Assembly: GCA_963662655.2 (NCBI GenBank)
Contig: CAXXTU010000002.1
Span: 3,328,001 to 3,392,000, forward strand
Source: Candidatus Cloacimonadales bacterium
Lineage (GTDB): Bacteria; Cloacimonadota; Cloacimonadia; Cloacimonadales; JAIOQZ01
Length of the DNA stretch: 64,000 nt
Direction of reading: 5' to 3'
Shown: piece by piece, positions 27,423-49,342 of the stretch
How the letters are laid out: each line of letters opens with the position of its first letter
Numbering within the stretch: the stretch's first letter is position 1
The notes under the pieces: generated by a model
Seen by the model: only the letters and a program-made list of their open reading frames with translations
Database searches by the model: none
Told to the model about the DNA's origin: nothing
Position numbers and translations under genes: made by a program

Positions 27423-28709
27423 TTACTTGATCAGCACGGCCTTACGAATGGACGTGAAGCCAGTCGATTGCATGTGGATCATGTAAATTCCTGAAGCCTG
27501 GCTGGCTGCATTCCAGGTGACGGAATTTGAACCCTTGTGCCCGTCGTGGGTGATGGTTTCAACCAATTGACCCTTCAGGTTGTAAACCTTGAAAGTAACG
27601 GTTTCGTCCTCGGGTATTGTGTAGGAGAACTTGGTTTCGGGATTGAACGGGTTTGGATAGACCGATTCGAAGTTCGTCACGATGTCTCCCGGGTCGGGCG
27701 TATCGCCTTCGCCGCCACTGAGAACGGTTGCGGTCACAGGACCGTGGAACTGTGTTTCTCCGCTCATTTCAACGCTTTCCAGCCAGTAGTGGTATGTGCA
27801 ATCGCACTCGACCTCGGCATCCGTATAGCTGTACTTGCTTTGGGCTGTCGTGTTGTTGGCCGGGATGTAGCTGGTGTTGATGGGTATTGCCTGGCTGAGG
27901 TTGCTCGATGTGTTGCGAAGCACGTTGTAGCCAAGGAGGTCGCTTTCGGACTCGGTAATCCAGTTTAGCTGAACCAGGTTGCTTTGCGTAACTGCCGCCG
28001 CGAAGCTGGAGAGCTCGACAGGGCAGGTTTCTTCGTCGCAACCGCAAAGCGAGAACGCGAGGTTGATCGTCGGATCGTAAATGCCGATTTCGACGACTTG
28101 ATGTTGCAGGTTGGTCGTGTGATAATACACAGCGCTGTCCTGGAAGTCATCCATCGAAGTTTTCCAACCACAGGTTCCATCCAGGGCGTTTACCTGGATC
28201 ACAAGCCAGTAGATTGTGCCGCCGATGGCGTGGAAGGGCGTTGCCACATCCGAGATGTACTGGTAGGCTTCGCAGTCCCCGCAATTCACTTCGTAGTACG
28301 AGAAGTGATCGTTGGGAGTGTAGGTGCCGGTCATCGGATCGAAGAATGCCTGAGCACCGGCAAGTGGGCCGTCGATTGAAGTTACGCCGTCTCCAGGGAA
28401 GAATGCATGGTTTCAAAGCATGGAACCAGGGTGGCTCCATGGAAGGTCCACGCCGGCGGGTACATCGCTCCAGATGCTTACATCGATAGAGGTGATATCG
28501 CCAACGACATCGCCTTGCCAGGACAGGAAGAAATGAATCGCGCAGATATACGTGTTATCTGGCACTAGCCAGTCGTCGCCAACGGCGGTGGTTTCGAATT
28601 CAATATCCACACCGTTGGCGTATGGACTTTGGTTCCATACCTCCTGGCACGTTTGACAGAATAGTGTCGAAAGACTCAACACGAAAACAATGATTAGTAT
28701 CTTTTTCAT
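27423..28709 (-). pseudogene. Secreted CTD (T9SS/FlgD-Ig-like) protein, paralog A, interrupted by in-frame TGA at 28413-28415
   Basis: ORFs 28413-28709 and 27423-28334 are in the same frame and collinear with paralog 29105-30397; PVELSSF and YPNPFNPET motifs. Confidence 0.8.
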
Positions 28710-29104: not shown

Positions 29105-30397
29105 TTACTTGATCAGCACTGCCTTGTGCATGGATTCGAATCCAGCGGCCTTCATGTGGATCATGTAAACGCCGGAAGCTTGATCTGAAGCGTTCCAGCC
29201 AACGGTGTTGCTGCCCTTCTTGCCTTGATGGGTGATGGTATCGACCAACTGCCCCTTCAGGTTGTAGACATCGAATGTAACGATTCCGTCCTTTGTGAGT
29301 GTGTAGCTGAAGGATGTGTTCGGGTTGAACGGGTTTGGATAAACCGAGTCGAACATCGTTACGATTTCAGCCGGATCGGGTGTGTCTTCTCCGGTTTCAT
29401 CGATGACGGTAACGCTCACGGGACCGTGGAACTGCGTCGCTCCGCTCATTTCCACGCTTTCCAGCCAGTAGTAATACGTGCAATCGCATTCGACTTCGGG
29501 ATCAATGTACGAATACTGGCTCTGCGATGCCGAGTTGTTCGCGTTGATGTATTCGGCGTTGATGGATATTGCCTCGTTGAGGTTGTTTGTCGTATTGCGG
29601 AGTACGTTATAGCCCAGGAGGTCGCTTTCGGATTCCGTTGTCCAGTTGATTTGAACGAAATTGCTTTGTGTTACCGCTGCATCGAAGCTGGAGAGTTCGA
29701 CAGGGCAGGTTTGATCACTACATCCGCAAAGTGAGAACGCGAGATGAATGCTCGGGTCGTAAGCCGGAATCGATATGGGTTGCCACATGGCGGTGGTCAC
29801 GTTGTCGAAGTACACGGCGTCGTCCATGAAGTCAACCGGGGAAGTCTTCCAGCCGCAGTTTTCTGGCGTAACAGCTATGTTTACCACTAACCAGTAAATC
29901 ACACCCGCCTGTGCGTGAAAGGGCGTAAAGAGATCCGAGATGTACTGCCCGGTTTCGCAATTGCCGCAGTTCACCCGATAGTAGTTGAGGTGATCTGCCG
30001 GATAGAAGTTGTCATTAAGGGGATTGTAGAAACTCTGCAATCCCGCTTCAGGAGGATCGATGGTAGTAATTCCATCGCCGACGATGAACACTTCAGTCCA
30101 GATGTTGTCTCCTGGATGGCTGTAAGGAATCCCTCCGGTTCCGGCTGGGACATCTTCGTTGATGCTTACGGAGATGAACAGGATTTCGCCGACAATGTCT
30201 TCCTGCCATGACAGCCAGAAATGGACAGCGCAGATATAGGTGTCTTCCGCTACAGACCAGTCATCCGCGATATCTGTACCGGTACATTGAATATCCACGC
30301 CACTCGGATCCGGTGGTTGCAGCCACACTTCCTGGCAAGTTTGTGAGAATAACGAGAGAGCGCTTAAAACAAAAAGAAAAAGCATGATTTTTTTCAT
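29105..30397 (-). CDS. Secreted CTD (T9SS/FlgD-Ig-like) protein, paralog B
   Basis: Signal peptide, ADDW..ICAVHFWLSW domain, PVELSSF linker, YPNPFNPNT..VYNLKGQLV..SGVYMI..KAVLIK. Confidence 0.85.
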   Translation of the reverse strand: MKKIMLFLFVLSALSLFSQTCQEVWLQPPDPSGVDIQCTGTDIADDWSVAEDTYICAVHFWLSWQEDIVGEILFISVSINEDVPAGTGGIPYSHPGDNIWTEVFIVGDGITTIDPPEAGLQSFYNPLNDNFYPADHLNYYRVNCGNCETGQYISDLFTPFHAQAGVIYWLVVNIAVTPENCGWKTSPVDFMDDAVYFDNVTTAMWQPISIPAYDPSIHLAFSLCGCSDQTCPVELSSFDAAVTQSNFVQINWTTESESDLLGYNVLRNTTNNLNEAISINAEYINANNSASQSQYSYIDPEVECDCTYYYWLESVEMSGATQFHGPVSVTVIDETGEDTPDPAEIVTMFDSVYPNPFNPNTSFSYTLTKDGIVTFDVYNLKGQLVDTITHQGKKGSNTVGWNASDQASGVYMIHMKAAGFESMHKAVLIK

Positions 30398-30644
30398 TGT
30401 AATCTCCTTGTGTATAAGAAGGTGGAACAGGGTATTTTCTATGTTTGATAATGAATGTTACAATCTTGAATCCTGAAAATCGAAGTATCAGATCACGTTA
30501 TTTTTGTTGTGACAGATTTCTTCACCCCAAATCATTCACGAATACATTATATTTAGCGAATGAGTGTTGTCAATATTTTTTATAGCAATATAATAGATGA
30601 ATCTGAATGAATGGTGTGCATTCTTGTTATTGGCGGATGTAATG

Positions 30645-30674
30645 AAAAAATCGGCAGGAAAAATTCCTGCCGAT
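30645..30674 (-). terminator. Intrinsic terminator ending the phosphate-locus operon
   Basis: ATCGGCAGGAA/TTCCTGCCGAT hairpin preceded by an A run on +. Confidence 0.8.
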
Positions 30675-30700: not shown

Positions 30701-31546
30701 TTATTTCATCAAAACCATCTTGCGAGTCTGAACCTGGTTCGATGTCTGAAGTCGGTAGTAGTAGATTCCGCTGGAGACGGATTTTCCGGTGTCATCGGTG
30801 CCCTTCCATACAACGCTCGTGGTTCCCTGCTGAGCCTGGCCGTTGAAGAGGCTCTTCACCTTCTGTCCACGAATGTTGAACACGGTGAGTGAAGCGTTTG
30901 CTTGCTGCGGGAGCGTGAAGCTGATCGTCGTCTCAGGATTGAACGGATTCGGGTAGTTGGCGTTCAACGCCGCCTGAGCGGATGGAATCGTTTCTTCGTC
31001 GTTGGCGATCATGTTGTCCGAAGAACCCGGTGACGGGGGATAGCTGTAGCCTGGTCCGAAGAACGACCAGTTATCGGTTCCGTCCGGAACTCTTCCGATG
31101 GATACGTCGTCCACGTCGAGACCTGTGTTTTCCTCGTATTCGTACTCGTAGCTGTCGATCACGACGTTCTCCGAGCTGATCAGATATACCGCGTCTGCGC
31201 TTCCGCCGAGCTTGGTGTCGACGTGGAAGATACCGTCGTCCGTGTCCTCATCGAACCAGAAGAGCATGAATCCGCCGGCTACAAGGGTGGTTTGTTCGGG
31301 GTACTCGTCCGAGATCATGAAGCAGCTTTCGAGGGTGCCGTCGTAGTGGTCATCGGCAAGGTACATTCCGCCTAAATCCACCGAAGAATCGTCAGCGTTG
31401 TAGATTTCGACCCAGTCGCAATAATCGCCTTCGGGATCGGTGATCGTCGATTCGTTTTTTGCCTGGATTTCATTGATATAAAGACTTTGGGCAAACAGCC
31501 CGAAGATGGCCGTCAACATAGCTAAAACCAATATCGCTCTTCTCAT
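30701..31546 (-). CDS. Lamin-tail-domain protein with C-terminal sorting domain
   Basis: LYINEIQAKN...DWVEIYN...VDLGGMYL; DVSIGRVPDG; NYPNPFNPETTISF...SSGIYYYRL...KMVLMK. Confidence 0.88.
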   Translation of the reverse strand: MRRAILVLAMLTAIFGLFAQSLYINEIQAKNESTITDPEGDYCDWVEIYNADDSSVDLGGMYLADDHYDGTLESCFMISDEYPEQTTLVAGGFMLFWFDEDTDDGIFHVDTKLGGSADAVYLISSENVVIDSYEYEYEENTGLDVDDVSIGRVPDGTDNWSFFGPGYSYPPSPGSSDNMIANDEETIPSAQAALNANYPNPFNPETTISFTLPQQANASLTVFNIRGQKVKSLFNGQAQQGTTSVVWKGTDDTGKSVSSGIYYYRLQTSNQVQTRKMVLMK

Positions 31547-31591
31547 GGGAGCCTCCCTGTTGTTTTTTCATTCATTCATACATTCAATCTG

Positions 31592-32332
31592 TTAAGGTAA
31601 TATATAGACGTCAAGACGATTTTCAGAATCGTCCACCACATAAACTCGATCGTTGATGACAACAACGCCTTCCGGATCCTGCGTTTGAATTCCCCATTTC
31701 TCCATTGTTCCCTGTTCTTCATGCCAAAGGCACAGAGTCTGATTTTCGTCCGAAATCATATAGTAGGTCTTCTCGATGCCGGAATAGCAAATTCCGGAAG
31801 TTGGGAAACTTAATGGAATCGGATCGAGGAAATCGAAAGAATCGAATTCGATTTTCAAAAGCTCGTACGGTTCGATCTTGCTCGTAACGACGATCAGCGA
31901 ATCGTGGTAGCACAATCCCTCGAAGGAATGTTCATCATTCTGTCCTGGAACAAGATTTTTCCCATAATAGAATCCTTCACCATTCAGCCCATACTGCATA
32001 ACAAATCCCTCTTCGTCCAACAGCCAGATGCGATTGGCTTCCAAATCATAGGAGATGCCTTCCAGATCGATAGCGCTTGTATCGAAACTATGTAAAATGG
32101 TTCCATCAAAATCGATTCGATAGACGAGGCCGTCCTCGTCGCTTACGGTCCAGAGTTTTTCGCCGTCCCAGGTTAGCCCCGAGGGCTCGGCAATGGAGAG
32201 AGGATAGCTCTCGATGCGTTCAAGTTGCACGACATCGCTTCCGCCATCGTCATCTTCGCAACCGGTGAACAGAATGGCAGTCATCGCAAGCAAGAGAAGC
32301 AGTATCGATGTGAATCCGCGCGCTTTCTTCAT
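31592..32332 (-). CDS. SdiA-regulated/YjiK-like beta-propeller lipoprotein
   Basis: Lipobox FTGC; EPSGLT..LWTVSD, DLEGIS, FEGLC, PEGV repeats. Confidence 0.75.
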   Translation of the reverse strand: MKKARGFTSILLLLLAMTAILFTGCEDDDGGSDVVQLERIESYPLSIAEPSGLTWDGEKLWTVSDEDGLVYRIDFDGTILHSFDTSAIDLEGISYDLEANRIWLLDEEGFVMQYGLNGEGFYYGKNLVPGQNDEHSFEGLCYHDSLIVVTSKIEPYELLKIEFDSFDFLDPIPLSFPTSGICYSGIEKTYYMISDENQTLCLWHEEQGTMEKWGIQTQDPEGVVVINDRVYVVDDSENRLDVYILP

Positions 32333-32334
32333 CT

Positions 32335-33345
32335 CTATTCCTGGTTCGAAGATCCTTTTGTCGGATTCGAGCTGACGCTCCAGACTCCGCCGTCGGGGAT
32401 ACGGGCGTAAGATTCCCCTTCGTTCATAGCTGGGAAGACGATGCTGTCGAGCAGCTCTTCGTCGTGGTTTTCCAAAAATATGTCCTCTCCGCCGCTGGAT
32501 AGCTTGAAATTGGTCTGCACATCGTCGCAGTCCCAGGCGAGGAATCCACCCGCCGGAACGATGGTTCCCGCAGGGAAGACGCTCTTGTTATCGGATGATC
32601 CGCCATCGTACAGGAAATAACCGCTGATGTCGATATCGTCTCCCGTCGAGTTGTAGATTTCGATCCAGTCGGGATCCCCAGTGGAGACAACCTCGTTCAG
32701 GAAAAGGTGCTGTGCCGGCGCGCCGCCGTTCGGAGCCCCGGGCGTCGGGTTTTCGACAACCTGCCACGCCCCGCTTCCGTCTGGAATGCGAGCGTAAGTC
32801 TGGCCGTCACCAAGGGCGGGGAACATGACGCTGCTTATCTCTGCGTAGTTAGATTCAGCTAGTGTAACGGATTCGCCATCGGCCGAAAGCCCAAAAGCGG
32901 TGTTGTATGGAACTGGGTCATTGGTGTTGAAGTGAAGCACCAGAAAGCCCATCGCGGGTACCTGAGCGGATGGGAAAATGTATGGGGCGTCCGCATGGCC
33001 GCCATCGTAAACGAGGAATCCGGTGATTTGGATCGCTTCCGTCGTTGGATTGAAGATTTCGATCCAGTCCTCACCCTTAGCGGAGACTTCGTTGATTACG
33101 AGCTCGAGATCGGAGGATGGATTGGAACCGGTCAGGCTGTCTTCGTCCAGGCTGCACGCGAAGAGCGTAACCGCAACGAGAATGACCGCGAGATAGCTGT
33201 ATGGCTGGAAGTAGTGCCGGTTCGGAAGGTGCTTTTCCGGGATCAGGTTTTTCTGCTTGATATGTGTGGACTTCTCACCCGAGGTTTTATTGCCGATAAC
33301 TTGCGTACGGAACCAGTTGGATATTCGATTCATGTTCAACATCAT
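32335..33345 (-). CDS. Lipoprotein with two lamin-tail domains
   Basis: LFAC lipobox; two copies of INEV..DWIEIxN...YARIPDG...PT.G. Confidence 0.85.
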   Translation of the reverse strand: MMLNMNRISNWFRTQVIGNKTSGEKSTHIKQKNLIPEKHLPNRHYFQPYSYLAVILVAVTLFACSLDEDSLTGSNPSSDLELVINEVSAKGEDWIEIFNPTTEAIQITGFLVYDGGHADAPYIFPSAQVPAMGFLVLHFNTNDPVPYNTAFGLSADGESVTLAESNYAEISSVMFPALGDGQTYARIPDGSGAWQVVENPTPGAPNGGAPAQHLFLNEVVSTGDPDWIEIYNSTGDDIDISGYFLYDGGSSDNKSVFPAGTIVPAGGFLAWDCDDVQTNFKLSSGGEDIFLENHDEELLDSIVFPAMNEGESYARIPDGGVWSVSSNPTKGSSNQE

Positions 33346-33353
33346 TCACCTCC

Positions 33354-34610
33354 CTAAAAGTTGACCAAGATGCGACCCGAGATGTACGAGAAATCGTCTT
33401 CACCCTCGTAATCGCCGTCGCCGTCCGCGTATTCGGAGTTCATCACATAAACGTAGTTGATCATGCAGCGAACGTTGTTGTTGGGATACCAGTTGAGCGC
33501 CAGCGAGTAGTTGTTCGCCATACCGCCGGTGATTTTCGCGTCTTCGTCCGTGAGGTCGAGGTGACTGTATCGTGCCGCGATTTCAAACGCGCCATACTTC
33601 TTCAGGGGAACCGGTTTGCTGAATTCCGCTTCGTCGAGGCTATAAGGACGCGATTCTCCGGTAATGAACCAGCCGAGCATGAAGTAACCGCCGCAGAACT
33701 CCGCGTTCTCGGTGTTACCCCTTCCGATAACGGTTGTCTGGATGTACTCGCCCTGTGCATAGACCGGCCCGATTTTACCGGCGATCTCGCCGCCGATGGA
33801 CTGATAGCCGGACACGTGATAGATGTCGCCCGTATCGAGGAATTTCGTGCGGGCGACGGATGTCTCCGGACGCTCATCGAAACCGATGCTGCGCTCATCG
33901 CCATCCTCAACGGCATCGGGGGTGACGCCGAGGAATGAAACGCCTGCGTGAATCAGGGATTCCTCTTTATTGATGGGTGCGGCAACAAACCGAATTGCAT
34001 ACGCCGTACCTTCGTCGCCGGATTTCTTGTCCAGGTTCTCGGCCGCTTCACCGAAAACACCTGCGGATGCATGGAAAAGCTTCCACCAGATTGTCGCGCC
34101 GAGCCCCATGCGGCGTCCGGTCGTGAAAACATTCGGGTAGGCACGTTCGAGGAATATCGTCTTGGATGAGCTGGTGAGTTCTTCCATGCTGAACGGCGGC
34201 TTGAAGTTACCGACCTTGATCATGGAGTTATCCGTGGGTTTGTAGGCCAGCCACATATCCTTGATCTCCATTCCCTTGTCTTTCTCGTCGCTTTCTTTCA
34301 CGTAGGTAGCGAAATCGATGTCCCATTCCGCCATCCATTTTTCCCAGAACTTCACCTTCATGGCGAAGCGAACGCGGCGAAGATCGGTGCCGTCGCTCAT
34401 GGAATCCTCGTTCTTGTTCTCGAAATAGACCGCTCCGTCCAGGTACATGCGTACATCGAAACGAGTCGAGAACGCTCCGTCCTTCGACTTGAACTGGAGA
34501 ATACCGTCTTCCCACTCTGTATCCGCTTCAACCGCGAACAGCGCTGCGGTGCACAGTAGAATGAGTAGCATCAATGATCCTCTAATCGTGAATCCTTTCA
34601 TCTGAATCAT
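33354..34610 (-). CDS. Phosphate-selective porin OprO/OprP family
   Basis: LRRVRF, VGNFKPPFSMEELTSS..FLER, WFITGESRPY, FEIAARYS, LNWYPN, terminal F. Confidence 0.88.
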   Translation of the reverse strand: MIQMKGFTIRGSLMLLILLCTAALFAVEADTEWEDGILQFKSKDGAFSTRFDVRMYLDGAVYFENKNEDSMSDGTDLRRVRFAMKVKFWEKWMAEWDIDFATYVKESDEKDKGMEIKDMWLAYKPTDNSMIKVGNFKPPFSMEELTSSSKTIFLERAYPNVFTTGRRMGLGATIWWKLFHASAGVFGEAAENLDKKSGDEGTAYAIRFVAAPINKEESLIHAGVSFLGVTPDAVEDGDERSIGFDERPETSVARTKFLDTGDIYHVSGYQSIGGEIAGKIGPVYAQGEYIQTTVIGRGNTENAEFCGGYFMLGWFITGESRPYSLDEAEFSKPVPLKKYGAFEIAARYSHLDLTDEDAKITGGMANNYSLALNWYPNNNVRCMINYVYVMNSEYADGDGDYEGEDDFSYISGRILVNF

Positions 34611-34627
34611 CTCCCCCTGTATGTTTT

Positions 34628-36091
34628 TTAATCAACTCTGAAATGATTGACTATGTAATCGATACGCTGTCGTATCTCGTCTTTCTTGCCCTTATCTTTA
34701 CTCCTGGCATTCCACGAATCGCATTCATCGGCCAGCGCTTGCTCGAATTGCCAGCGATACCTGAATTTTCTACCGATCATTTTCTCCAGCGCGGATATCT
34801 GGCTTTCGTTGAGATTTTTGTAAGAGATTAGTTTGAATTTCGCGGGAGTGATCTCGATGGGATCCAATGCGCCATAGAGCATGATCAATTCTTTCTCGGG
34901 CTGTGTGTATTGATCCACATTGGATAAATAGGCATGCAGCGCTCGCGCGTTTTTGAAGGTAGCTCCCTTGAGCGGTTCGATTTTCTCGTAATCGATTTCG
35001 TGCGTACTCAGTTCCCTGATAACCGGGTTGCCGAAATCGTAGATGGTTTCGTTGTGCACCTTCTGGTCGAACACGTTCTGCACGAAGAACAGAAGAACGA
35101 ACGTTATAATGCAGGCGATCACGGGCGTGGTTATCCAGCCCATCGAAATCCTTCCCAAAACTCTGAACTGGATATTTCTCCCGCCCTTCGCGACGGCGAT
35201 ACCGATGACGCCACCGACCACGGCCTGGGAGCTCGATACAGGAACCAGCGGGAACGCCGGTAAATGATGGGCGAGCATCCAGTCGTGCAGCGATTGAGAA
35301 CCGAAGATGAACAAGACCCATGCCTCGGCAAGAATGACGATCAATCCTCCGACCGAGGACAGGCGGAAGAGATCGTTGCCCACGGTTCTTATTACGTTGT
35401 GCGAATAGGTGATAACGCCAAACCCGATGGCGATACTACCGATCAGGAACAGCACTTGCGTTCCTGAAAGGTCGATCCCGGCCAGACTGATATCGTGAAA
35501 TGGCGCTGCCGGCACAAACACGCCCATCGCGTTCGCAATGTTGTTTGCTCCCAAACTGTATGCGCCAAAGGCGGTTACGGCGAGGTAGAAGAATCGGGTA
35601 TAGGCATCGATTCTGAGAAGGTGAACCTTGCTTCGGACAATGAAGTAGAGGTAGAATTTGTAGAAGATGAATGAGAAAATCGCAGCAAGAATCGGACAGA
35701 TTACCCACGTTCCGAAAATTTTCGACAGGGCCGAGAAATCGGTGAGAGAACCGCTGAAAAAGTTCCATCCGATGATTCCACCGACGATTGCCTGAGAGGT
35801 AGAAACCGGAAGCCCCATTTTGGTCATTCCAGCGACGGTTATCGCGGCAGCGAGAGCCACGGTGAAAGCTCCGCCCAATGCATCGACCGAACCGAGTTTG
35901 CCCAGCGTCTGTGACGCGCCGGCTCCTTCGTAAACTGCGCCGATGATCACGAAAAACGATGTGAGAAGCGCTGCTGTCCGGAACTTGACCATTTTGGTGG
36001 AGACGGCGGGACCGAAAACGTTGGCGGCATTGTTTGCGCCCAGTGACCACGCCAGGAAAAGACCGCTGGAGAGGTAGATCAACAACAACAC
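34628..36091 (-). CDS. Inorganic phosphate transporter, PiT family, with soluble C-terminal extension
   Basis: GANNAAN and GANNIAN repeats; PVSTSQ and PVSSSQ motifs. Confidence 0.92.
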   Translation of the reverse strand: MLLLIYLSSGLFLAWSLGANNAANVFGPAVSTKMVKFRTAALLTSFFVIIGAVYEGAGASQTLGKLGSVDALGGAFTVALAAAITVAGMTKMGLPVSTSQAIVGGIIGWNFFSGSLTDFSALSKIFGTWVICPILAAIFSFIFYKFYLYFIVRSKVHLLRIDAYTRFFYLAVTAFGAYSLGANNIANAMGVFVPAAPFHDISLAGIDLSGTQVLFLIGSIAIGFGVITYSHNVIRTVGNDLFRLSSVGGLIVILAEAWVLFIFGSQSLHDWMLAHHLPAFPLVPVSSSQAVVGGVIGIAVAKGGRNIQFRVLGRISMGWITTPVIACIITFVLLFFVQNVFDQKVHNETIYDFGNPVIRELSTHEIDYEKIEPLKGATFKNARALHAYLSNVDQYTQPEKELIMLYGALDPIEITPAKFKLISYKNLNESQISALEKMIGRKFRYRWQFEQALADECDSWNARSKDKGKKDEIRQRIDYIVNHFRVD

Positions 36092-36094
36092 CGC

Positions 36095-36733
36095 TTACAC
36101 CTGCCTTTTGATCGTATAGATGGACAGCCTGTCGGCCATGGTTTCCGCGTAGTCGGAGATGTGCTCCACGTGCAAAGCGAAGTAGCGAAGGTGGTTTTTC
36201 CAGGCGAGCTCGATGTCCGATTTGAAGATGGCTCTCTTGAGTCTTTCGGCGATTTTATCGGCTTCCTTCTCGTGCAGGTAGACCTTGTGGAGGTGGTCCT
36301 GAACCGTCTTGACGTCGCGGAAGAAGCAGCGAACGCCTGAAATCAGCGCATCGACGCTGTCCTCGCTCGCGATAGCGAGCTCGATGTACTGGTTGGTGAA
36401 GTCCTTCGGGATTTTCGGGCACTCGACGGAAAATTGCAGCAGGGTTTCTTTGATGTTGTCGATGATGTCGTCGGTATTTTCCAGGATCGCAAGCACGTCT
36501 CCGCGAGATTCGGGGATCAGCGTGTGGGCGTAGAGTTCTTTCTCGATATCGCGGCGAAGCTTGTCCGCTGTGCTCTCGAGCTCAGACACCTTCAGGCGGC
36601 GTGCTTCGAATTCCTCGGGATTGTTCTCCATGTAATAACGGATGGCTTTGCTGAAAAGGATCGCTCCCTGACTGATGACGTCGAGGAATTCGTCGATCAT
36701 TTTCTCGATTCGTTTGGTTCTTCGTAAAAGCAT
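36095..36733 (-). CDS. DUF47/PhoU-like PiT accessory protein
   Basis: ESTADKLRR...EKEAD...ISDYAE helical repeats; adjacent to PiT. Confidence 0.9.
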   Translation of the reverse strand: MLLRRTKRIEKMIDEFLDVISQGAILFSKAIRYYMENNPEEFEARRLKVSELESTADKLRRDIEKELYAHTLIPESRGDVLAILENTDDIIDNIKETLLQFSVECPKIPKDFTNQYIELAIASEDSVDALISGVRCFFRDVKTVQDHLHKVYLHEKEADKIAERLKRAIFKSDIELAWKNHLRYFALHVEHISDYAETMADRLSIYTIKRQV

Positions 36734-36746
36734 AGACTATCTTACC

Positions 36747-38237
36747 TCATTGATTCTTCTCAGGGGTTTTCTTCTGCAACAGGCCCCTGATGATTGGTAT
36801 TGCGATGGATAATACCGCAACGCACAATATTGCAACGCTGACAGGTCTTGTAAAGAAAATTTGATATCCGCCCATTTTTACCGCGTTTCGGAAGTTCTCC
36901 TCTGCGATGCGTCCCAGCACGATTCCCAGCACGACCGGAGCCACGGGGAAGTCGTAACGACGCATGAGCCATCCCAGGATTCCAAAGGCCAGGCAGGTGA
37001 TGACATCGAAGAGCGAATTGTTCACCGCGAACGCGCCGATAATGGATACGGCGAAGATCAGCGGGAAGAGCACCTCGCGTGGGACCTGGGTGACCTTGAT
37101 CCAGAGCTTGCTGCCGAGGAGTCCGAGCGCGAGCAGGACGAAATTGGCGATCAGGAGGCTTGCGAAGAGTCCGTAGACGATTTCCGGCGCGGTCTCGAAG
37201 AGGCGCGGTCCTGGGTCCAGATCGTGGATCATGAGTGCGCCGATGAGTACGGCGGTCGAGGCGCTTCCGGGGATTCCCAGCGTGAGGAGGGGAACCAGCG
37301 CTCCGCCCACGGAGCTGCTGTTGGATGCTTCAGCCGCGGCGACGCCATCCGGGCATCCGTTGCCGAATTCGTCGGGATGCTTGCTCATGCGTTTGGAAAC
37401 GTCGTAGGAAATGAAGGAGGCGATGGTTGCGCCAGCCCCCGGGAAAATGCCGATGACGGTTCCGATGATCGATGAGCGCAGAATGGTCCATTTCAAGCGC
37501 CAGTATTCCGCGATGGAAGGCCAGTGCGTCTTCCCGCTCTCGAATCGCTGCACTTCGAACTCGTGAGCCTCGAACTGTCGGAATACCTCGCTCAGGGCGA
37601 AGAGCCCGATGAGGATGGGGATGAGGTTGAATCCGTCAAAGAGTTCGGTGATGCCGAAGGAATAGCGAGTTACGCCCGTTTGCTCGGTGCCGATGGTTCG
37701 CAGTAGCAGCCCGAGAAAAACGGCGGTGAACGCCTTGATCCAGTTCTTGCCGCCCAGCGAGGCAACGGTTGTCAGGCCGAAGAAGGCCAGTGCGAAGTAT
37801 TCTGCCGGGTGGAATTGAAGCGTTACTTTAGCCAGCGGAACGGAGAAGAAAATCAGAATCAGCGTCCCGACGATTCCGCCGACCGTCGAGGCGATGAGGG
37901 AAATCCCCAGGGCGACCCCGGGCTTTCCTTTCTTCGTGAGCGGGTAACCGTCGAAAGAGGTTACCACAGCCGAGGCAGTTCCGGGCGCGTTGATGGTCAC
38001 GGCGGTAATGGAGCCCCCGTAGTTGGCGGCGATGTAGATTGAAATAAGCAGGATCAGTGCAACAGACGGATCGAGTGCGTAGGTGAACGGAACCAGCAGC
38101 GCGACGCCCATCGAGGGCGAAAGGCCTGGCATGGCTCCAGCGAGAATTCCGAAAATGACACCGGTAACGATCGCCAGCATGGGTATCCAGCCTGCGATGT
38201 ATCCGAATCCCTCGATCAGGTGAGTCAATACTTCCAT
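36747..38237 (-). CDS. tctA: Tripartite tricarboxylate transporter large permease
   Basis: GAMPGL, YGGSITAVTINAPGT, DGYPL, AAAEASN, PLLTLGIPGS. Confidence 0.93.
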   Translation of the reverse strand: MEVLTHLIEGFGYIAGWIPMLAIVTGVIFGILAGAMPGLSPSMGVALLVPFTYALDPSVALILLISIYIAANYGGSITAVTINAPGTASAVVTSFDGYPLTKKGKPGVALGISLIASTVGGIVGTLILIFFSVPLAKVTLQFHPAEYFALAFFGLTTVASLGGKNWIKAFTAVFLGLLLRTIGTEQTGVTRYSFGITELFDGFNLIPILIGLFALSEVFRQFEAHEFEVQRFESGKTHWPSIAEYWRLKWTILRSSIIGTVIGIFPGAGATIASFISYDVSKRMSKHPDEFGNGCPDGVAAAEASNSSSVGGALVPLLTLGIPGSASTAVLIGALMIHDLDPGPRLFETAPEIVYGLFASLLIANFVLLALGLLGSKLWIKVTQVPREVLFPLIFAVSIIGAFAVNNSLFDVITCLAFGILGWLMRRYDFPVAPVVLGIVLGRIAEENFRNAVKMGGYQIFFTRPVSVAILCVAVLSIAIPIIRGLLQKKTPEKNQ

Positions 38238-38238
38238 A

Positions 38239-39777
38239 TCAACCCTGCCATATCTGGCTAATCAGGATTCCCTGCGGCAACGCAACGTGCAGGATGCGGA
38301 AGAACAGCACATAGGAAAGCAGCATCCATGCGATGGTGATCACGATGATTGCGATCCTATTACGATAGCCCAACAGCCACATGGCGACGGGCAGGAAAAC
38401 GATCGTTGAAATGAAATAACCAATGAATTTGATCGCAGGAATGTAGAGCATCAGAAGCACGATAAAGCGGAGCACGATGTCCAGCCTGCCGGGCTTGGGA
38501 TCCTCGCTTTCTTTACCTGCGAGAACCTTGAGGTATAAAATCAAACTGCAGAGTGTCAGCAGGAATGCCCAAAGGCGCGGAACGACGGCAGGGCCGTAGG
38601 CATCACCATCGGCGAAACGGGCTGATAGCATCCAGAAGAAGAGCGACAGGCTGATGAAGAAGATGGGGAAGAGGATTCTTCCCGTGTAATGGAAGAGCCT
38701 CGATTTCAAGCGGATACCGGCCAGTGCGAGAAGAAGTATCTGCACCATGAGGATACCGAGCGTTTTCAGCTCGAAGGATGCGATATCGAATGCCCCTTGC
38801 GGATCGGTTTGCATCTCTGGCTCTATCAGTCCCAGGCTGGAGAGGTAGTGGTGGAATTCTTTACGGTCGGCTTCAATGATTTGCCTGAATTTCTCCGGGC
38901 CATAGTGGACGACTTTGATGCCGCCTTTCTCCCAGAAGCTGCGCCAGTCCGGATCGCCGGTTACCTTTTCAAAGAGGTTCGAGTACCAGTCGAGCGCTAT
39001 CTGCGGCGTGTTTTTCTTAACGGCAAAGCCGCGCCACATGATTTCGTTGTCCAGGCCGCTCAGCCCCAGCTCGGAAAAGGTGGGCGCATCGGGGAATTGA
39101 GGTAAACGCTCTTCGGAGGAGACCGCGGCGATCTTGAGGTCGGGTTTACCGGAGATGTCGCGTGGATTGCCCACGTACACGACTCCCTGTCCGCCCATGA
39201 GCGCCGTCATGGCCGCACCGCCGCTCTTGAACGGAATCCATTTGCAGGAAATTCCACTTTTTTCCCAAAGCTTCATCGCCATGATGTGGTCCAGACCGCC
39301 AGCGGCGGGACCGAGCCAGATTTGTTCCCCGGGGTGTGCCTTGGCGTCCGCGACGACCTCTTCCCAGGTATCTATCTCCGCGTTGCGATTGGTGATAACG
39401 CATTCGGGATCCGCCATCAGCATGGCCATCCAGTTGAGGCTGTCCGAATTGACCGCGGCGTTGGCGCCCACGAGAAAGGAGATATTGGATTTGGTTCCCG
39501 CGAAAATCGTGTATCCATCCGCCGGCGCTTGCAGAACGCTCTGCATACCCACGACTCCACCCGCTCCCGGGCGGTTTTCCACCACGAACGTGGCGTCGGA
39601 GTACTTGGTTGCGACATCGGTAAACTTACGTGCGGTGATGTCTATCAATCCACCAGGTGCGGTATAGACCACCATTTTGACCGGGCGATCGGGAAATTGT
39701 TCGTTGCCCGACCTCTTGCATGAGAAAATCGATAGGATCAGGCACATCGATAGAGAGAGGTATAGCAGTTTTTTCAT
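38239..39777 (-). CDS. Fused TctC substrate-binding protein plus TctB-like membrane domain
   Basis: Lipobox FSC; FPDRPVKMVV..PGG..D..AR, VENRPGAGG, PADGYT, PTFSELG; C-terminal TMs with GPAVVPR and LFFRILHVALPQG. Confidence 0.88.
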   Translation of the reverse strand: MKKLLYLSLSMCLILSIFSCKRSGNEQFPDRPVKMVVYTAPGGLIDITARKFTDVATKYSDATFVVENRPGAGGVVGMQSVLQAPADGYTIFAGTKSNISFLVGANAAVNSDSLNWMAMLMADPECVITNRNAEIDTWEEVVADAKAHPGEQIWLGPAAGGLDHIMAMKLWEKSGISCKWIPFKSGGAAMTALMGGQGVVYVGNPRDISGKPDLKIAAVSSEERLPQFPDAPTFSELGLSGLDNEIMWRGFAVKKNTPQIALDWYSNLFEKVTGDPDWRSFWEKGGIKVVHYGPEKFRQIIEADRKEFHHYLSSLGLIEPEMQTDPQGAFDIASFELKTLGILMVQILLLALAGIRLKSRLFHYTGRILFPIFFISLSLFFWMLSARFADGDAYGPAVVPRLWAFLLTLCSLILYLKVLAGKESEDPKPGRLDIVLRFIVLLMLYIPAIKFIGYFISTIVFLPVAMWLLGYRNRIAIIVITIAWMLLSYVLFFRILHVALPQGILISQIWQG

Positions 39778-39790
39778 TCTGCGAAACCCA

Positions 39791-40702
39791 TTAACCCAGT
39801 TTTTCGAAGATCAATCCGTGGCGAAGACCTCGGTCGCTCACTACGAGATCGCCAACGGCAAATCGCTTCATGATGGCTTCTACGATAAGTGCACCGGCGA
39901 GTATCACGTCCGCGCGCTTGGGTTGCAGGCCAGAGATTGTTTTTCGCTGGTCGATGGTTTTCCCGGCATAGAGATCGATCTGGTTGCTGACTTCCTCAAG
40001 CGTGATTTTGCTGCCTTGAATCAACTCGGGTTTGTAAACAGCCATCTTGTGCATGACGGCGCACAGACTTGTCACCGTTCCTCCGATGCCCACCAGTCGC
40101 TGGATTTTCCCGGTGACTTTGTGCTCGTCGAAGAATCCATTGATGTAGGTTCTCGCACGTTGAAGCTCGTCGGGCGCGACAGGATCGGAGAGTAAGATGT
40201 TTTCCGTTATCAAGACGGCTCCGATGTCCAGGCTGAATCTTTTGGCGATGTGGTCCGCCTTCCCGAAAATGAATTCCGTGCTTCCGCCGCCGGTATCGAT
40301 GATGAGGACATCCTCGTTTCCGACACCCACGCCGGAAACGACGGCGAGATAGGAGAGGCGTGCTTCCTCTTCTCCGGGAAGAACGTTGATGGTAAGGCCG
40401 AGCTCCTTCTTAGCCTTCGAAACGAAGTCGGACGCGTTTTTTGCGGAGCGCAGGCACATGGTGCCAACAGCGATGAATTCATCCACGCCAAATTCTTCTT
40501 TGCCGCGCTGCATGAATTCCCGGAGCGCTTCGATATTTCGCTCGATGGCTTCGTCGGATAACGATCCGGTACGGGTCATCCCGTCACCGAGCCGTGAAAT
40601 GTTGTTTGTATCGAGTAACACCTTGATGCCGTTGCTGGTTTTCTCCGCTACATGAAATTTGATCGAATTCGTACCGATATCGAGGATCGCAAGACGTTTC
40701 AT
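39791..40702 (-). CDS. Ppx/GppA family exopolyphosphatase
   Basis: LDIGTNSIK, GEEEARLSY, DTGGGSTE, GIGGT, RADVILAG, GLRHG. Confidence 0.92.
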   Translation of the reverse strand: MKRLAILDIGTNSIKFHVAEKTSNGIKVLLDTNNISRLGDGMTRTGSLSDEAIERNIEALREFMQRGKEEFGVDEFIAVGTMCLRSAKNASDFVSKAKKELGLTINVLPGEEEARLSYLAVVSGVGVGNEDVLIIDTGGGSTEFIFGKADHIAKRFSLDIGAVLITENILLSDPVAPDELQRARTYINGFFDEHKVTGKIQRLVGIGGTVTSLCAVMHKMAVYKPELIQGSKITLEEVSNQIDLYAGKTIDQRKTISGLQPKRADVILAGALIVEAIMKRFAVGDLVVSDRGLRHGLIFEKLG

Positions 40703-40713
40703 CGTTCCTCCTT

Positions 40714-41298
40714 TTACAGGATGCCGGCAGATTTTTTCATCGCGTGGATATAATTGACGTTGCGAAGGTTAATCAGATCGAGCTTGGCGACGAGGCTACG
40801 AACGAGGTGAATGTCGGTGTGTTCAATGGCGACAGTCTCGGTCGGTTTTCCGTCGATAGTCACCTGCGCATATTCGCAGATGGCTTCTTCCACGGTGAAG
40901 ATGTGGCGTTTCTTGACGACCTGTACCGGCACGAGGTCTTCGATATCTCCGACGATCTCGTTCATGAAGGACGCGAAGTCGTATTCGTCTTTCTCGAGGT
41001 AAGGCAGGCGGATGCCGAACGCCTTGAAGATGAGCGCGAGGTCGTTGATGTGAACCGGGAATCCGGCTTTACCGAGGACTGTCCATTGCTCGAGGCCGTC
41101 ATCGCTGTGTCGCAGCAGGGTTTTCATGTCGATCAATTCGAATCGTATCTTGATGTTGTCGTCGCTTTTGCGCGAGAGTATATAGGTTTCTTCGCTTTCT
41201 TTGACGCCCGTTTTTTCGTATTGTTTAAACACATCCAGAAATTCCTGGAGATCGCTTCCGAAGGTTCTCCATTCCCAACGCGGTATTATCTTTGTCAT
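40714..41298 (-). CDS. CYTH/triphosphate-tunnel-like protein (putative)
   Basis: N-terminal RWEWR (ExE/R-like), ETYILS..NIKIR, KKRHIF..CEY, TVAIE, NY near the end. Confidence 0.6.
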   Translation of the reverse strand: MTKIIPRWEWRTFGSDLQEFLDVFKQYEKTGVKESEETYILSRKSDDNIKIRFELIDMKTLLRHSDDGLEQWTVLGKAGFPVHINDLALIFKAFGIRLPYLEKDEYDFASFMNEIVGDIEDLVPVQVVKKRHIFTVEEAICEYAQVTIDGKPTETVAIEHTDIHLVRSLVAKLDLINLRNVNYIHAMKKSAGIL

Positions 41299-41458
41299 CG
41301 TTCCCCCAATTATTGATGATATTTTTAGCACGATTATAGATTATTGATCTAAAATGAGGCGTAGAAATCGTCAAACTTTTTCTGTGGATAAACGAATCGG
41401 AAAAGGAATTTTCATGCGAAACACACAATGGCTAAAGAGGGAAAAGACTGTCGAGTCA

Positions 41459-43644: not shown

Positions 43645-44106
43645 ATGGAGCAAAAACGACCGGAACTCGATGCGATCATCGACCGCTATCAGGGAAAGAA
43701 AGGCGTATTGATTCCGCTGCTGCAAGACGTTCAGAAGCTGGAGGGATTCCTCTCCAGGGATTCGATGCGATACGTTGCAGAGCACACGGGCGTGCGCCTT
43801 GCCGAAATTTACGGCGTCGCAACCTTTTACACCATGTTCCGCCTGAAACCGCAGGGGAAACACGTTATTCGCGTATGCAAGGGAACCGCGTGCCACGTTT
43901 CCGGCGCGAATCTGATCACGGAAGCGATCAGAAGCGAACTGGGACTGAAGAAGGACGAAGACACTACGAACGACGGATACTTCACGGTTATGGAAGTGGC
44001 GTGCCTCGGCTGCTGCAGCCTGGCGCCCGTTATCATGGTGGACGACACAACCCATGGAAAGCTCACCCCGGACAAAGTTGCCGGCGTGCTGACCAAGTAC
44101 AGGTAG
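43645..44106 (+). CDS. NuoE/HydC-like 2Fe-2S subunit
   Basis: GVATFY, CKGTACHV, CLGCC. Confidence 0.93.
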   Translation: MEQKRPELDAIIDRYQGKKGVLIPLLQDVQKLEGFLSRDSMRYVAEHTGVRLAEIYGVATFYTMFRLKPQGKHVIRVCKGTACHVSGANLITEAIRSELGLKKDEDTTNDGYFTVMEVACLGCCSLAPVIMVDDTTHGKLTPDKVAGVLTKYR

Positions 44107-44156
44107 AACATTAAAAATCAGGTAATGCGAATTCGCATGAAACCGAGGAGGATAGT

Positions 44157-45920
44157 TTGAGTCAGCTAATGATCAAAGTCGGAATGGCGAGCTGCGGAGT
44201 AGCGGCTGGCGCCGGTGATGTCTGGAAAGCTATAGAAGATTTTATCGGGGACCATCCGGAAATTACGCTGGAAAAGACCGGTTGTGTCGGTATGTGTGCG
44301 TTCGAGCCGCTGGTGGAGATCACTCCCGAAGGCAAGAAGACCATTACGTACGGAAACATCACGCCGGAAGAGACGATTTCCGTCATCGAGGGCTACCTCA
44401 ACAAAGATGACGCGAAGATCGCTTCCATCGCCGGTCGATTGATTCCCCGCGATGAGAAATTGAGCAAGCAAACCCGTATCGTTCTTCGCAACACGGGTAT
44501 CATCGATCCCACATCCATTGACGAATACCTCGAGCACGACGGTTACAAAGCGCTGGAAAAGGCGTTGAAGAACATGACTCGCGAAGAGGTTATCAATGAA
44601 GTGAAAGCCTCCGGTCTTCGTGGCCGTGGCGGCGCAGGTTTCCCCACCGGCTTGAAATGGCAGTTCGCTTATCAGGCGAAAGACAACAAGAAGTACATCG
44701 TCTGTAACGCGGACGAAGGCGATCCGGGCGCGTTCATGGATCGCAGTGTCCTCGAAGGCGATCCGCACAGCGTGATCGAAGGCATGATCATCGGCGCGTA
44801 CGCGATTGGCGCGGATGAAGGCTACATTTATTGTCGTGCCGAATACCCCATGGCGATCCGCCACCTGCTTATCGCGCTCGAAGAAGCAGAAGCACGAGGC
44901 TACATGGGCAAGAATATCATGGGCACCGGTTTCAACTTCGAACTGCACATCAAGGAAGGCGCAGGCGCCTTCGTGTGTGGCGAGGAAACCGCTCTCATGG
45001 CTTCCATCGAAGGAAAGCGCGGAATGCCGCGTATCCGTCCTCCATTCCCGGCGCAGTCCGGTCTCTGGGGACACCCGACCAACATCAACAACGTGGAAAC
45101 GTTTGCAAATATCGCCTGGATCATCAACAACGGCGCAGACAAGTACGCCAGCCTCGGAACCGAGAAGAGCAAGGGAACCAAGGTCTTCGCGCTCGCCGGT
45201 AAGATCAAGCACGCCGGCCTTGTGGAAGTCCCGATGGGAACGCCACTTCGCGAAGTGATTTACGAAGTGGGCGGCGGCATGCTTACCGATAAGCCGTTCA
45301 AAGCTGTCCAGCTTGGCGGACCATCCGGCGGATGCGTCCCGAAGGAACTGCTCGACACCATCGTCGACTATGACTCCATCACCCAAACGGGCGCGATCAT
45401 GGGCTCCGGCGGTATGGTCGTTATGGACGAGAGCACCTGTATGGTGGACATCGCGAAGTTCTTCCTGAACTTCACGCAGAACGAATCCTGCGGAAAGTGC
45501 ACCTTCTGCCGCGTGGGAACCAAGCGCATGCTCGAGATCCTTCAGCGCATCACGGAAGGAAAAGGCGAGATGGAAGACATCGACAAGCTGTACGAGCTTT
45601 CCGAGAACATCCGCAAAACGTCGCTCTGCGGTTTGGGCCAGACGGCTCCCAACCCGGTGCTGACCACCCTGCGTTACTTCAAGCACGAATACATCGCTCA
45701 CATTCAGGACAAGAAATGTCCCGCCGGCGCATGCCAGGCGCTGATCAAGTTCGAAATCGATGCGGACAAATGCGTCGGCTGTACGCTTTGTGCCCGTAGA
45801 TGTCCGGTCAATGCCATTTCCGGCAAGGTCAAGGAACCGCACGTGATCGATCAGAACGCCTGTATCGGTTGCGGCGCTTGCGAAGCGGCATGTAAATTCG
45901 GCGCAGTGATTAAATCATAG
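44157..45920 (+). CDS. NuoF/HydB-like FMN/NADH subunit with N-terminal thioredoxin-like Fe-S and C-terminal 2x[4Fe-4S] domains
   Basis: SGLRGRGGAGFPTG, CNADEGDPGAFMDR, GAFVCGEETAL, ESCGKCTFCR, two CxxCxxCxxxC. Confidence 0.95.
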   Translation: MSQLMIKVGMASCGVAAGAGDVWKAIEDFIGDHPEITLEKTGCVGMCAFEPLVEITPEGKKTITYGNITPEETISVIEGYLNKDDAKIASIAGRLIPRDEKLSKQTRIVLRNTGIIDPTSIDEYLEHDGYKALEKALKNMTREEVINEVKASGLRGRGGAGFPTGLKWQFAYQAKDNKKYIVCNADEGDPGAFMDRSVLEGDPHSVIEGMIIGAYAIGADEGYIYCRAEYPMAIRHLLIALEEAEARGYMGKNIMGTGFNFELHIKEGAGAFVCGEETALMASIEGKRGMPRIRPPFPAQSGLWGHPTNINNVETFANIAWIINNGADKYASLGTEKSKGTKVFALAGKIKHAGLVEVPMGTPLREVIYEVGGGMLTDKPFKAVQLGGPSGGCVPKELLDTIVDYDSITQTGAIMGSGGMVVMDESTCMVDIAKFFLNFTQNESCGKCTFCRVGTKRMLEILQRITEGKGEMEDIDKLYELSENIRKTSLCGLGQTAPNPVLTTLRYFKHEYIAHIQDKKCPAGACQALIKFEIDADKCVGCTLCARRCPVNAISGKVKEPHVIDQNACIGCGACEAACKFGAVIKS

Positions 45921-45931
45921 GAGAGTGGATC

Positions 45932-48900: not shown

Positions 48901-49342
48901 TCTTTATGGCGAAACACCGGACGAGACACAGGCGGAAGCGCTTCAGGGCAGCGGATTCACCGTATCCGTGAACACGCACAAGGTGTTTGACGCGGATATG
49001 ATACTGCCGCAGGCTTCTTACCTTGAGATCGAAGGTTCCGTATTCGCGGACGACCAGAGCATGAACTTCTTCTACAATCCGAAGGATTCTGCCCTCTTCG
49101 ACGAGCTCGTCGAGTTGTTCGCCGACATGGAGATCATTCCGGAAGCGCACAGCGAGAAGAGCTACTGGCTCGGTCGCAGCCGTTACCTCCGCGATGCGAA
49201 TCCGCAGATTGCAATCCAGTCAATGGACCTGCACAAGTGGCTTGGATCGCTGAATAACCTGCGTAAGGAACCGATGTCTGCCAACGCTGGCAAGCTCGCT
49301 CTGATCACGGAAATGAAGGCTAAAACAGAGCAGGAACGCTAA
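45932..49342 (+). CDS. Fusion: 2Fe-2S + GltD-like FAD/NAD(P)H oxidoreductase + NuoG-like Fe-S and degenerate molybdopterin-fold domains
   Basis: IPTLC..C..C, GRVCPAFCE, GAGPSG, GGGNTAVD, YRRT, CLECGC, CVNCGRC, CESCGKC, CGNCGTGC..CFKGRFG. Confidence 0.88.
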   Translation: MIKIKLNNREIITEAGRTILEVAQENGVSIPTLCHDPELQPYGSCWVCAVEVKGARGFVTACGTRVSDGMEIMTDTKEVHAARKMALELLASDHYADCEAPCSVACPDHVDIQSYVAHIANGDYHEAVKVIKEKLPMPLSIGRVCPAFCEAECRRKIVDEPIAIRQLKRHAADFDLNDYWTWVPEKKPASGKKVAIIGAGPSGLTCGYYLSNEGHDVTVFEASPKAGGWLRYGIPEYRLPKATLDKEIELMCANGMEIKYNVKIGETISMQDICKDYDAVYMALGAQNAVPMRVTGADLDGVLLGVDFLRDFVLGKDVNVGKKVAIIGGGNTAVDCARTSRRLGADVTIIYRRTRKEMPAEEYEVDAADEEGIKFYMLTNPVEFLGEGGKLKKVKLEKMELGEPDSSGRRRPVPTGEFFDEEFDTVIAAISQAPDVDFLAKEENYVAGKQLPLSRWQTAEVNENTMYLGYGNVFAGGDFRRGPATAIEAIADGRIAYEQIDRFLLGLPVEAPKVKFDSKKEKKLADVSPEEYEQYEKKPRAKMPELEAESRATNFEEVELGFVDEDARAEAERCLECGCQVNSSCVLRQYCTEYDVDVDLFAGSKNKHPIDRSHPFILRDANKCVNCGRCIRICSEVQGAGVLGYIFRGFASLVAPEFGESLTYTSCESCGKCVAVCPVGALTERQVHYKLHPHPGEKIIQNCGNCGTGCTIEVNTQIDRVAFINAPEEEGFNGRDLCFKGRFGWQIFESDEKLSEPLIRKDGKYEPITWEEVTEILREKFEKAESKSIYLSADATNEEMLLMQEVAINSDAEIGSLSLKKDFADGVMMNHHYRKSFQELEDAEAIVIVGTIGHTLRTLARKQQRKGKKLILINNNDADFNRFADVHVKNADFCKVLDGICQSTCNCSKVECQCGHEAKIDIDLPNRTLFFYDRTEIGEDVIQKIWTVATATCDFSKGSGVIPTSKWMNLNGLIKLGFEEMPAKKADLVILYGETPDETQAEALQGSGFTVSVNTHKVFDADMILPQASYLEIEGSVFADDQSMNFFYNPKDSALFDELVELFADMEIIPEAHSEKSYWLGRSRYLRDANPQIAIQSMDLHKWLGSLNNLRKEPMSANAGKLALITEMKAKTEQER

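Follow-up and report, generated by a model that had tools for sequence, protein, structure and literature searches.

Which solute is taken up by a tripartite tricarboxylate transporter (TTT) whose genes stand amid those of phosphate carriers and polyphosphate-type enzymes? The question is raised by a 64,000-nucleotide stretch of the Candidatus Cloacimonadales bacterium genome (contig CAXXTU010000002.1, positions 3,328,001 to 3,392,000; hereafter the window), in which ten minus-strand open reading frames (ORFs) occupy positions 30701..41298 with intergenic gaps of 1-45 bp. They encode a divergent TTM/CYTH-fold protein (divTTM), a Ppx/GppA phosphatase, a TctC-TctB fusion, TctA, a DUF47 protein, a PiT-family carrier, an OprO/OprP-type porin and three LTD or propeller proteins. 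The answer that we favour, with a little better than an even chance of being right, is that the TTT imports triphosphate or short polyphosphate (polyP), which would then be hydrolysed in the cytoplasm; each functional step of this route is one that we infer. That the ligand contains phosphate at all appears likely.

A first-pass annotation, made from the letters of the window, had described a tightly packed ten-gene run on this strand that ends in a terminator, and the ORFs, Pfam assignments and a hairpin confirm that description. Pfam families are assigned to nine of the ten genes, the exception being the first, and they agree with the names originally given (Ppx-GppA, TctC and TctB in one chain, TctA, DUF47, PHO4, Porin_O_P, 2xLTD, SdiA-regulated, and LTD with FlgD_ig/Por_Secre_tail).

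A TTT clade linked to phosphate genes

The TctC-TctB and TctA proteins of the window are members of one distinct TTT clade. In a FastTree phylogeny of 103 TctC domains, from which sequences with fewer than 230 aligned residues or containing X were dropped, 82 domains group together on a long stem (0.71, support 0.92), and the other 21, which are paralogues, fall outside this group. Record titles place this clade in Cloacimonadota, Spirochaetota, Marinisomatota, Planctomycetota, Verrucomicrobiota/Lentisphaeria and proteobacteria/SAR324. TctC-TctB fusions are common (43-76% identity); the two are fused in Cloacimonadota, Marinisomatota and Planctomycetota, and tctB is a separate gene in Spirochaetota and proteobacteria. 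The window TctC, the only one found in its genome, resembles Bug27 in fold (Foldseek TM 0.90), and its top matches are all TctC/Bug structures. TctA shares 54-89% identity with 29 clade members, and both copies of its glycine-rich motif are invariant or nearly so across the 30 sequences. A plasmid search returned no clade TctC in the 12 records listed of 200 (31-33% identity).

The neighbourhoods of tctC were scanned from -7.5 to +8.5 kb in genome loci (the best 80 of 97) and metagenome loci (the best 80 of 141), together with 20 wider regions from a phylum search. That phosphate genes accompany close tct homologues, a check proposed by the first-pass annotation, was borne out in six phylum-level groups: among the 80 genome loci, divTTM is encoded in 58, one of three hydrolases in 62 and a PiT or NptA carrier in 47. 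Where at least 3 kb is available on both flanks, the corresponding numbers are 41, 42 and 34 of 48 genome loci, and 27, 27 and 26 of the 29 metagenome loci so flanked. By comparison, genes for divTTM, CYTH, Ppx, DHH, PiT, DUF47, NptA or porin were found in 0/24 other tctC loci (12-16 kb around), as judged with profiles built from clade loci, which very distant homologues could escape. To obtain these controls, five clade members and one 2-kb contig were removed from the 30 TctC loci listed for five carrier genomes; one control had a PhnD-like gene, and a refetched clade locus scored positive.

Chance clustering was rejected as an explanation, as the ten genes keep an identical order in 3/3 same-genus genomes and the core recurs in other phyla. 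DUF47-PiT precedes tctC in most other Cloacimonadota, the loci of Spirochaetia are minimal (LysR, DHH, divTTM, tctCBA), and in genome G245, whose TctC is 100% identical to P0434 (Magnetospira sp. QH-2), tctCBA faces CYTH and divTTM. The phylum search matched TctC in 27/201 genomes, three of them weakly or partially, and 25 of these 27 also encode divTTM.

Exchange of hydrolases in one slot

Three unrelated hydrolases alternate in a single slot of the 62 loci that have one: Ppx in 25, a canonical, NeuTTM-like CYTH protein in 28 and DHH-DHHA2 in 9, with two never occurring together. On the TctC tree the canonical CYTH enzymes fall in three separate places and DHH in one. The nearest solved relative of the window Ppx is Aquifex PPX/GppA (2J4R, E 8.8e-51), that of the canonical CYTH proteins is Nitrosomonas NE1496/NeuTTM, and that of the DHH proteins is the yeast exopolyphosphatase PPX1 (E 3e-34, vs 2e-11 for family II pyrophosphatases). 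When aligned with the Aquifex enzyme, the window Ppx shows the ASKHA domain, the catalytic Glu and D-x-G-G-G-S-T-E. Its best NCBIfam model is exo_poly_only, at 245 bits vs a cut-off of 307.

NeuTTM is specific for triphosphate (PPPi) and Prune-type DHH proteins are short-chain exopolyphosphatases (PMC3440374). Since the activities of NeuTTM, Prune and Ppx overlap, the substrate common to the three exchanged enzymes would be inorganic tri- to short polyphosphate. Import of a condensed or organic phosphate by the TTT, as originally suggested, is partly supported by the phosphate-gene link, and the evidence narrows the substrate towards inorganic condensed phosphate.

A divergent triphosphate-tunnel protein

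The label 'CYTH-like' given earlier to the first gene was right as a fold call, resting on a predicted structure (pLDDT 95.6). The window copy has zero Pfam or NCBIfam matches, sequence and profile searches of the PDB and Pfam with divTTM yielded nothing usable, and the identification came from the fold search only. The model has the CYTH/TTM triphosphate-tunnel fold, with VIA Z scores of 12.7, 12.3 and 12.3 against PH1012, ThTPase and YgiF (root-mean-square deviation 3.7-3.9, 150-173 residues aligned), well above unrelated structures; Foldseek gives E 1e-5 against CYTH/TTM structures, and the match to Vtc4/Vtc2 is weaker (Z 7.1-8.1). Pfam CYTH is found in 2/40 family members (best E 0.0042), and hhalign did not link divTTM, the canonical CYTH proteins and a 312-aa Marinisomatota neighbour to one another.

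Conserved basic residues are present in divTTM. In place of the N-terminal ExExK motif stands R7-W-E9-W-R11, of which E9 and R11 are invariant in 40 sequences, and T155-x-A157-x-E159 lies at the C-terminal ExE region, in a register against canonical CYTH that is unreliable (hhalign probability 0.6%). Because the first motif is divergent and the C-terminal metal ligands are unplaceable, divTTM may bind, convert or even make polyP; in Vtc4, basic residues stand in for the acidic patch (PMC4641920). Of 647 longer homologues the best 120 were listed, and in 117 of these divTTM is fused to Ppx, which ties it to the same chemistry as Ppx. The family comprises 2,111 clusters at 50% identity (E up to 0.001) and lacks a Pfam model of its own. 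A complex prediction for TctA with divTTM scored 0.00 and carries no weight either way.

The divTTM-Ppx fusions are proteins of about 500 aa that are annotated simply as exopolyphosphatase. Stand-alone degenerate divTTM copies with no phosphate context were also seen (L267 9083-9670, L268 9320-9916 and L273 1711-2295).

Residues of the binding protein

In TctC proteins a Phe forms the platform for the carbon chain of the ligand, and helices 3 and 5 constitute a variable distal site (PMC5812351). Among the 82 clade sequences the P-F signature with its aromatic docking residue has become Y-T: Y38 is found in 78, and the docking position, 39, is occupied by Thr (58), Met (8), Leu (6) or Val (6), vs an aromatic residue in 14/21 controls. 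K96, which opens the helix that comes after strand 3, occurs in 81/82 (Arg in the other) vs 0/21 controls, K101 in 74, R206 in 56, and position 45 is mostly Ile. Loss of the Phe and gain of the Lys would fit a ligand that has no carbon chain and carries more negative charge. TctA likewise has clade-specific polar residues (N72, T78, S307-S309).

These residues bear on the proposal that the TTT imports an organic phospho-compound, such as a nucleoside tri- or tetraphosphate, phytate fragments, a phospho-carboxylate or a phosphonate, from which the enzymes strip phosphates. We regard this as improbable: the hydrophobic docking Phe is gone, a NeuTTM-like enzyme indicates inorganic PPPi, and no organic-moiety gene recurs in the 60 largest neighbour clusters (30 proteins scanned). 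In its favour, a pincer for one carboxylate or oxyanion is retained, the propeller is phytase-like by its Atlas neighbours, in Marinisomatota the loci further include a PhnD-like binding protein with a kinase, as well as an MFS carrier, and nucleoside tetraphosphates are also cut by Prune-type enzymes (PMC3440374).

Evidence that tells against condensed-phosphate import

A number of observations weigh against import of triphosphate or short polyP. In the binding protein, the carboxylate pincer G-G-x-x-D of domain 1 is retained (G42, G43 and D46 in 78-79/82), K101 is Phe in the TctC of the window and its genus, R249 is common to 14/21 controls, and alignment and secondary structure, rather than coordinates, are the basis for locating the pocket residues. 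Ppx/GppA enzymes have pppGpp as another possible substrate. Hydrolase choice follows lineage, so that the counts represent about four events, not 62. PiT and NptA occur together in 9/48 loci, so redundancy among carriers of orthophosphate (Pi) is tolerated. E. coli Ppx is poor on PPPi (PMC3440374).

The enzyme module, moreover, is not bound to the TTT, as is evident from divTTM cores without it, a plasmid locus and a fusion. Nine of 34 divTTM-bearing genomes of the phylum gave no TctC match, and in five of these nine (73-93% complete), which have close divTTM copies, TctA was not found either. Genomes G065 and G192 have a core of divTTM, Ppx and Pi transporter followed by unrelated genes, so that the enzyme substrate there must come from elsewhere. 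A Citrobacter plasmid (L286 4208-9727, NZ_CP026058.1) carries LysR, CYTH, divTTM, an SLC13/DASS permease and an unknown gene, and no recognised carrier adjoins a Cupriavidus divTTM-Ppx fusion. The five well-flanked loci of Planctomycetota have a recognised hydrolase in 0, divTTM in one, a weak TTM-like candidate (hhalign E 0.0044, probability 7.9%) in two and no phosphate link in two.

Clade loci L110, L117 and L124, which show no phosphate link, agree with an ordinary carboxylate TTT, for citrate or a citrate-metal complex, that provides the phosphate enzymes with a chelator or divalent metal, or is just carried along. So do the retained pincer, the mostly carboxylate-bearing ligands of characterised TTTs (PMC5812351) and the binding of citrate-Zn by BctC (bioRxiv 10.64898/2026.07.27.740893). 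Nevertheless, the phosphate link outlasts gene-order shuffling, tctC-tctB fusion and fission, and replacement of the enzyme across at least four lineages, it is absent from all of the control loci, and citrate-use genes do not recur in the same neighbour clusters; we judge this explanation the least probable of those considered.

Several loci have further neighbours. A DASS gene related to the L286 permease occurs in Marinisomatota TTT loci and is a second candidate importer. The 312-aa lipoprotein-like Marinisomatota neighbour (L095 16503-17441 and relatives) has no Pfam match and is presumably CYTH-like, by motif likeness; after it come a second porin type, a choice-of-anchor I protein and a carrier of the DASS or MFS family. 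In Planctomycetota (L096 12939-14871, L103 13047-15183, L193 12982-14914), tctA is followed by a secreted YncE-like propeller that offers no functional clue and a further TTM-like candidate, with a large LTD-CotH protein directly upstream in L096. In L121 (2632-9586) a clade tctC stands back to back with a kinase gene and pstS...phoU.

Phosphate carriers, porin and surface proteins

The TTT is found together with Pi transporters, not in their stead (34/48 well-flanked loci). Among NCBIfam models the window PiT scores best with that of the sulfate permease CysP, far short of the cut-off. The porin matches OprP (2O4V) and OprO (4RJW/X) with E about 1e-17 and has the OprO/OprP family profile, the RR pair and the TSS-K...ER stretch; one Lys, that of OprP LEKATSS, which we take to be a phosphate-site residue, is replaced by Glu.

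Capture of the substrate by the LTD and propeller proteins at the cell surface, as first suggested, found no support, and these proteins were rejected as required capture parts. Their genes accompany that of the porin (in loci with enough flank, LTD stands immediately behind OprP in 19/19 and the propeller follows the porin in 12/14) and are missing from the Spirochaetota and proteobacterial loci; they are accessory. Atlas neighbours of the propeller carry PF06977 and PF13449.

Polyphosphate and phosphate supply in the genome

PPK1, PPK2 and VTC were not found in the window's genome (98.95% complete; other polyP kinase types were not searched for), and the known internal sources of polyP are thus missing. 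PPK1 and PPK2 were found in 0/23 Cloacimonadota carriers, a count not compared with Cloacimonadota without the locus; among the other carriers, PPK1 is present in 6/17 and PPK2 in 10/17. Family I and DHHA2-type pyrophosphatases were not found in the window's genome either, the membrane pyrophosphatase being the only pyrophosphatase family found there. Elsewhere the genome encodes a Pst-type locus, NptA and a second Ppx/GppA. At about 1.60 Mb on contig C2 of this genome lies another cluster, of PhnD-like ABC type, whose last gene is an NptA gene (L275 6898-12061).

The presence of Ppx where no known PPK is found is among the points that favour a unit for Pi uptake and storage, in which the TTT would be an extra carrier of orthophosphate or metal-phosphate, divTTM a Vtc4-like polymerase that makes polyP where PPK is lacking, and recycling of this polyP the task of Ppx, CYTH or DHH. 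The enzyme core occurs without the TTT, a DASS/SLC13 permease takes the TTT's place in L286, and the Arg at the first acidic motif position of divTTM can be compared with the basic patch of Vtc4 (PMC4641920). However, the Vtc4/Vtc2 fold matches fall below the hydrolase matches, PPPi-specific NeuTTM-type enzymes are poorly suited to recycling long chains, Pi is already supplied by PiT or NptA and a separate Pst system, and some of the genomes that have divTTM do encode PPK1 or PPK2. This explanation is unlikely, if the least so of the three alternatives to import of condensed phosphate.

Scavenging under phosphorus limitation, also proposed at first, is unsupported, and a Pho-starvation label was rejected as established. 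The window has 0 Pho-box matches with up to 3 mismatches (0.75 expected) to an enterobacterial consensus, from which the box of this phylum may depart; the genome has a Pst locus elsewhere, and the regulator neighbours in other loci are ArsR, LysR, GntR or a binding-protein/kinase pair.

A proposed route for condensed phosphate

In the import route that we favour, a triphosphate-sized solute, possibly a metal complex, would cross the outer membrane through the OprO/P-type porin. Membrane-tethered TctC would bind it by Lys96, Ser/Thr and helix N-termini, which would replace the Phe platform, and deliver it to TctA. In the cytoplasm divTTM might hold the chain or convert it, by ring opening or endo-cleavage, for Ppx, CYTH or DHH; Ppx would split the chain to phosphate and pyrophosphate (PPi). 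PiT-DUF47, or NptA-PhoU elsewhere, would balance the freed Pi, either by exporting the surplus or by taking up Pi freed outside, and the leftover PPi would pass to the membrane pyrophosphatase. A bolder version, which we hold to be doubtful, makes the clade both the first dedicated bacterial importer of inorganic polyP and an energy route in anaerobes without PPK or soluble pyrophosphatase, in which tri- or short polyP is opened by a new TTM class, Ppx trims it to PPi and PPi drives the membrane pyrophosphatase.

Operon boundaries and other features of the window

Purine-rich stretches resembling ribosome-binding sites (RBS) precede most of the ten starts (Table 1). A consensus scan for promoters and terminators was at chance level (7 vs 9.2; 12 vs 11.5), and the operon hairpin is not on its list.

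Table 1. Positions of the operon genes and putative signals in the window.
Feature	Position	Strand	Evidence or remark
Putative sigma-70-type promoter, TTGACG-17-TAGATC	41346..41374	-	TTGAC element aligns in 3/3 same-genus upstream regions
divTTM, divergent TTM/CYTH-fold protein, 194 aa, without signal peptide	40714..41298	-	Predicted structure, fold search
Single-domain Ppx/GppA phosphatase, 303 aa	39791..40702	-	PF02541, E 3.8e-64
TctC-TctB fusion, 512 aa, N-terminal lipobox-like IFSC	38239..39777	-	PF03401 and PF07331 (PF07331 E 7e-14)
TctA large membrane subunit, 496 aa	36747..38237	-	PF01970, E 7.9e-159
DUF47 (PhoU-like) PiT partner, 212 aa	36095..36733	-	PF01865
PiT-family anion transporter, 487 aa	34628..36091	-	PF01384, E 5.1e-53
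OprO/OprP-type porin	33354..34601	-	PF07396, E 7.9e-62; ORF-finder start 34610, RBS spacing better for 34601
Two-LTD lipoprotein-like protein, 336 aa	32335..33345	-	PF00932 x2
SdiA-regulated/phytase-like beta-propeller lipoprotein, 246 aa	31592..32332	-	PF06977
Secreted LTD protein with C-terminal FlgD-Ig/sorting-type domain, 281 aa	30701..31546	-	Pfam
Intrinsic terminator-like hairpin and U-tract	30645..30674	-	-24.4 kcal/mol, z -5.4, 0/200 shuffles as stable

Right past the terminator, at 30546-30594, a 12/12 sigma-70 consensus (minus strand, 30573-30546) stands ahead of the next gene and overlaps an 11/12 plus-strand site. Beyond it lie tandem paralogues with DUF7901 and a C-terminal sorting domain (27423-28709 and 29105-30397, both minus strand), the second apparently split into ORFs of 98 and 303 aa. 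On the plus strand, 43645-49342 holds a three-gene cluster of NuoE/NuoF-like proteins and a 1136-aa Fe-S flavoprotein, which, judging by motifs, is probably an electron-bifurcating complex.

Relation to known systems and implications

In common with other TTTs (TctABC/BctCBA, and the Bug proteins, AdpC, TphC and MatC), the clade has three subunits, the type II binding-protein fold, the G-G-x-x-D pincer and the duplicated TctA glycine motif. It differs from them in the fusion of TctC to TctB in three lineages, the change of P-F to Y-T, the clade-specific Lys96 and the phosphate-enzyme neighbours. Similarly, divTTM shares the tunnel fold and basic residues with the TTM/CYTH tripolyphosphatases (NeuTTM, YgiF, AtTTM3, SaTTM), and a NeuTTM-like gene is itself present in 28/80 loci; unlike those enzymes, divTTM lacks ExExK and, in the window copy, a Pfam match, and is paired or fused with a second hydrolase. 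For the tripolyphosphatases, no transporter link is reported in the literature consulted. The porin, carrier and PhoU-like partner are homologous to Pseudomonas OprO/OprP and PiT-DUF47, but here they share one operon with a binding-protein-dependent carrier and cytoplasmic hydrolases. In ppk-ppx operons and VTC, Ppx or a TTM fold likewise has phosphate transport genes nearby; in this genome, by contrast, PPK1, PPK2 and VTC were not found and an importer stands where the polymerase would be. The novelty would lie in the substrate class and pathway, the parts themselves belonging to known families.

A literature search, with subscription papers outside its scope, found no TTT or other importer described for PPi, PPPi or polyP. 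Whether exogenous polyP enters cells, and how it is accessed, is given as unknown in a 2026 account (PMC13318637), as are the uptake route in marine polyP use (PMC9303572) and the physiological substrate source of PPPi-specific enzymes (PMC3440374).

If the proposed import holds true, both the uptake route of polyP and the source of PPPi would be answered, and an inorganic substrate class would be added to the TTTs, for which the soluble binding domain of TctC makes the ligand directly screenable. A large unannotated TTM family would also be defined. Given its presence in Cloacimonadota, Marinisomatota, SAR324, Spirochaetota and Rhodospirillales, the system could matter to the phosphorus cycle of seas and sediments.

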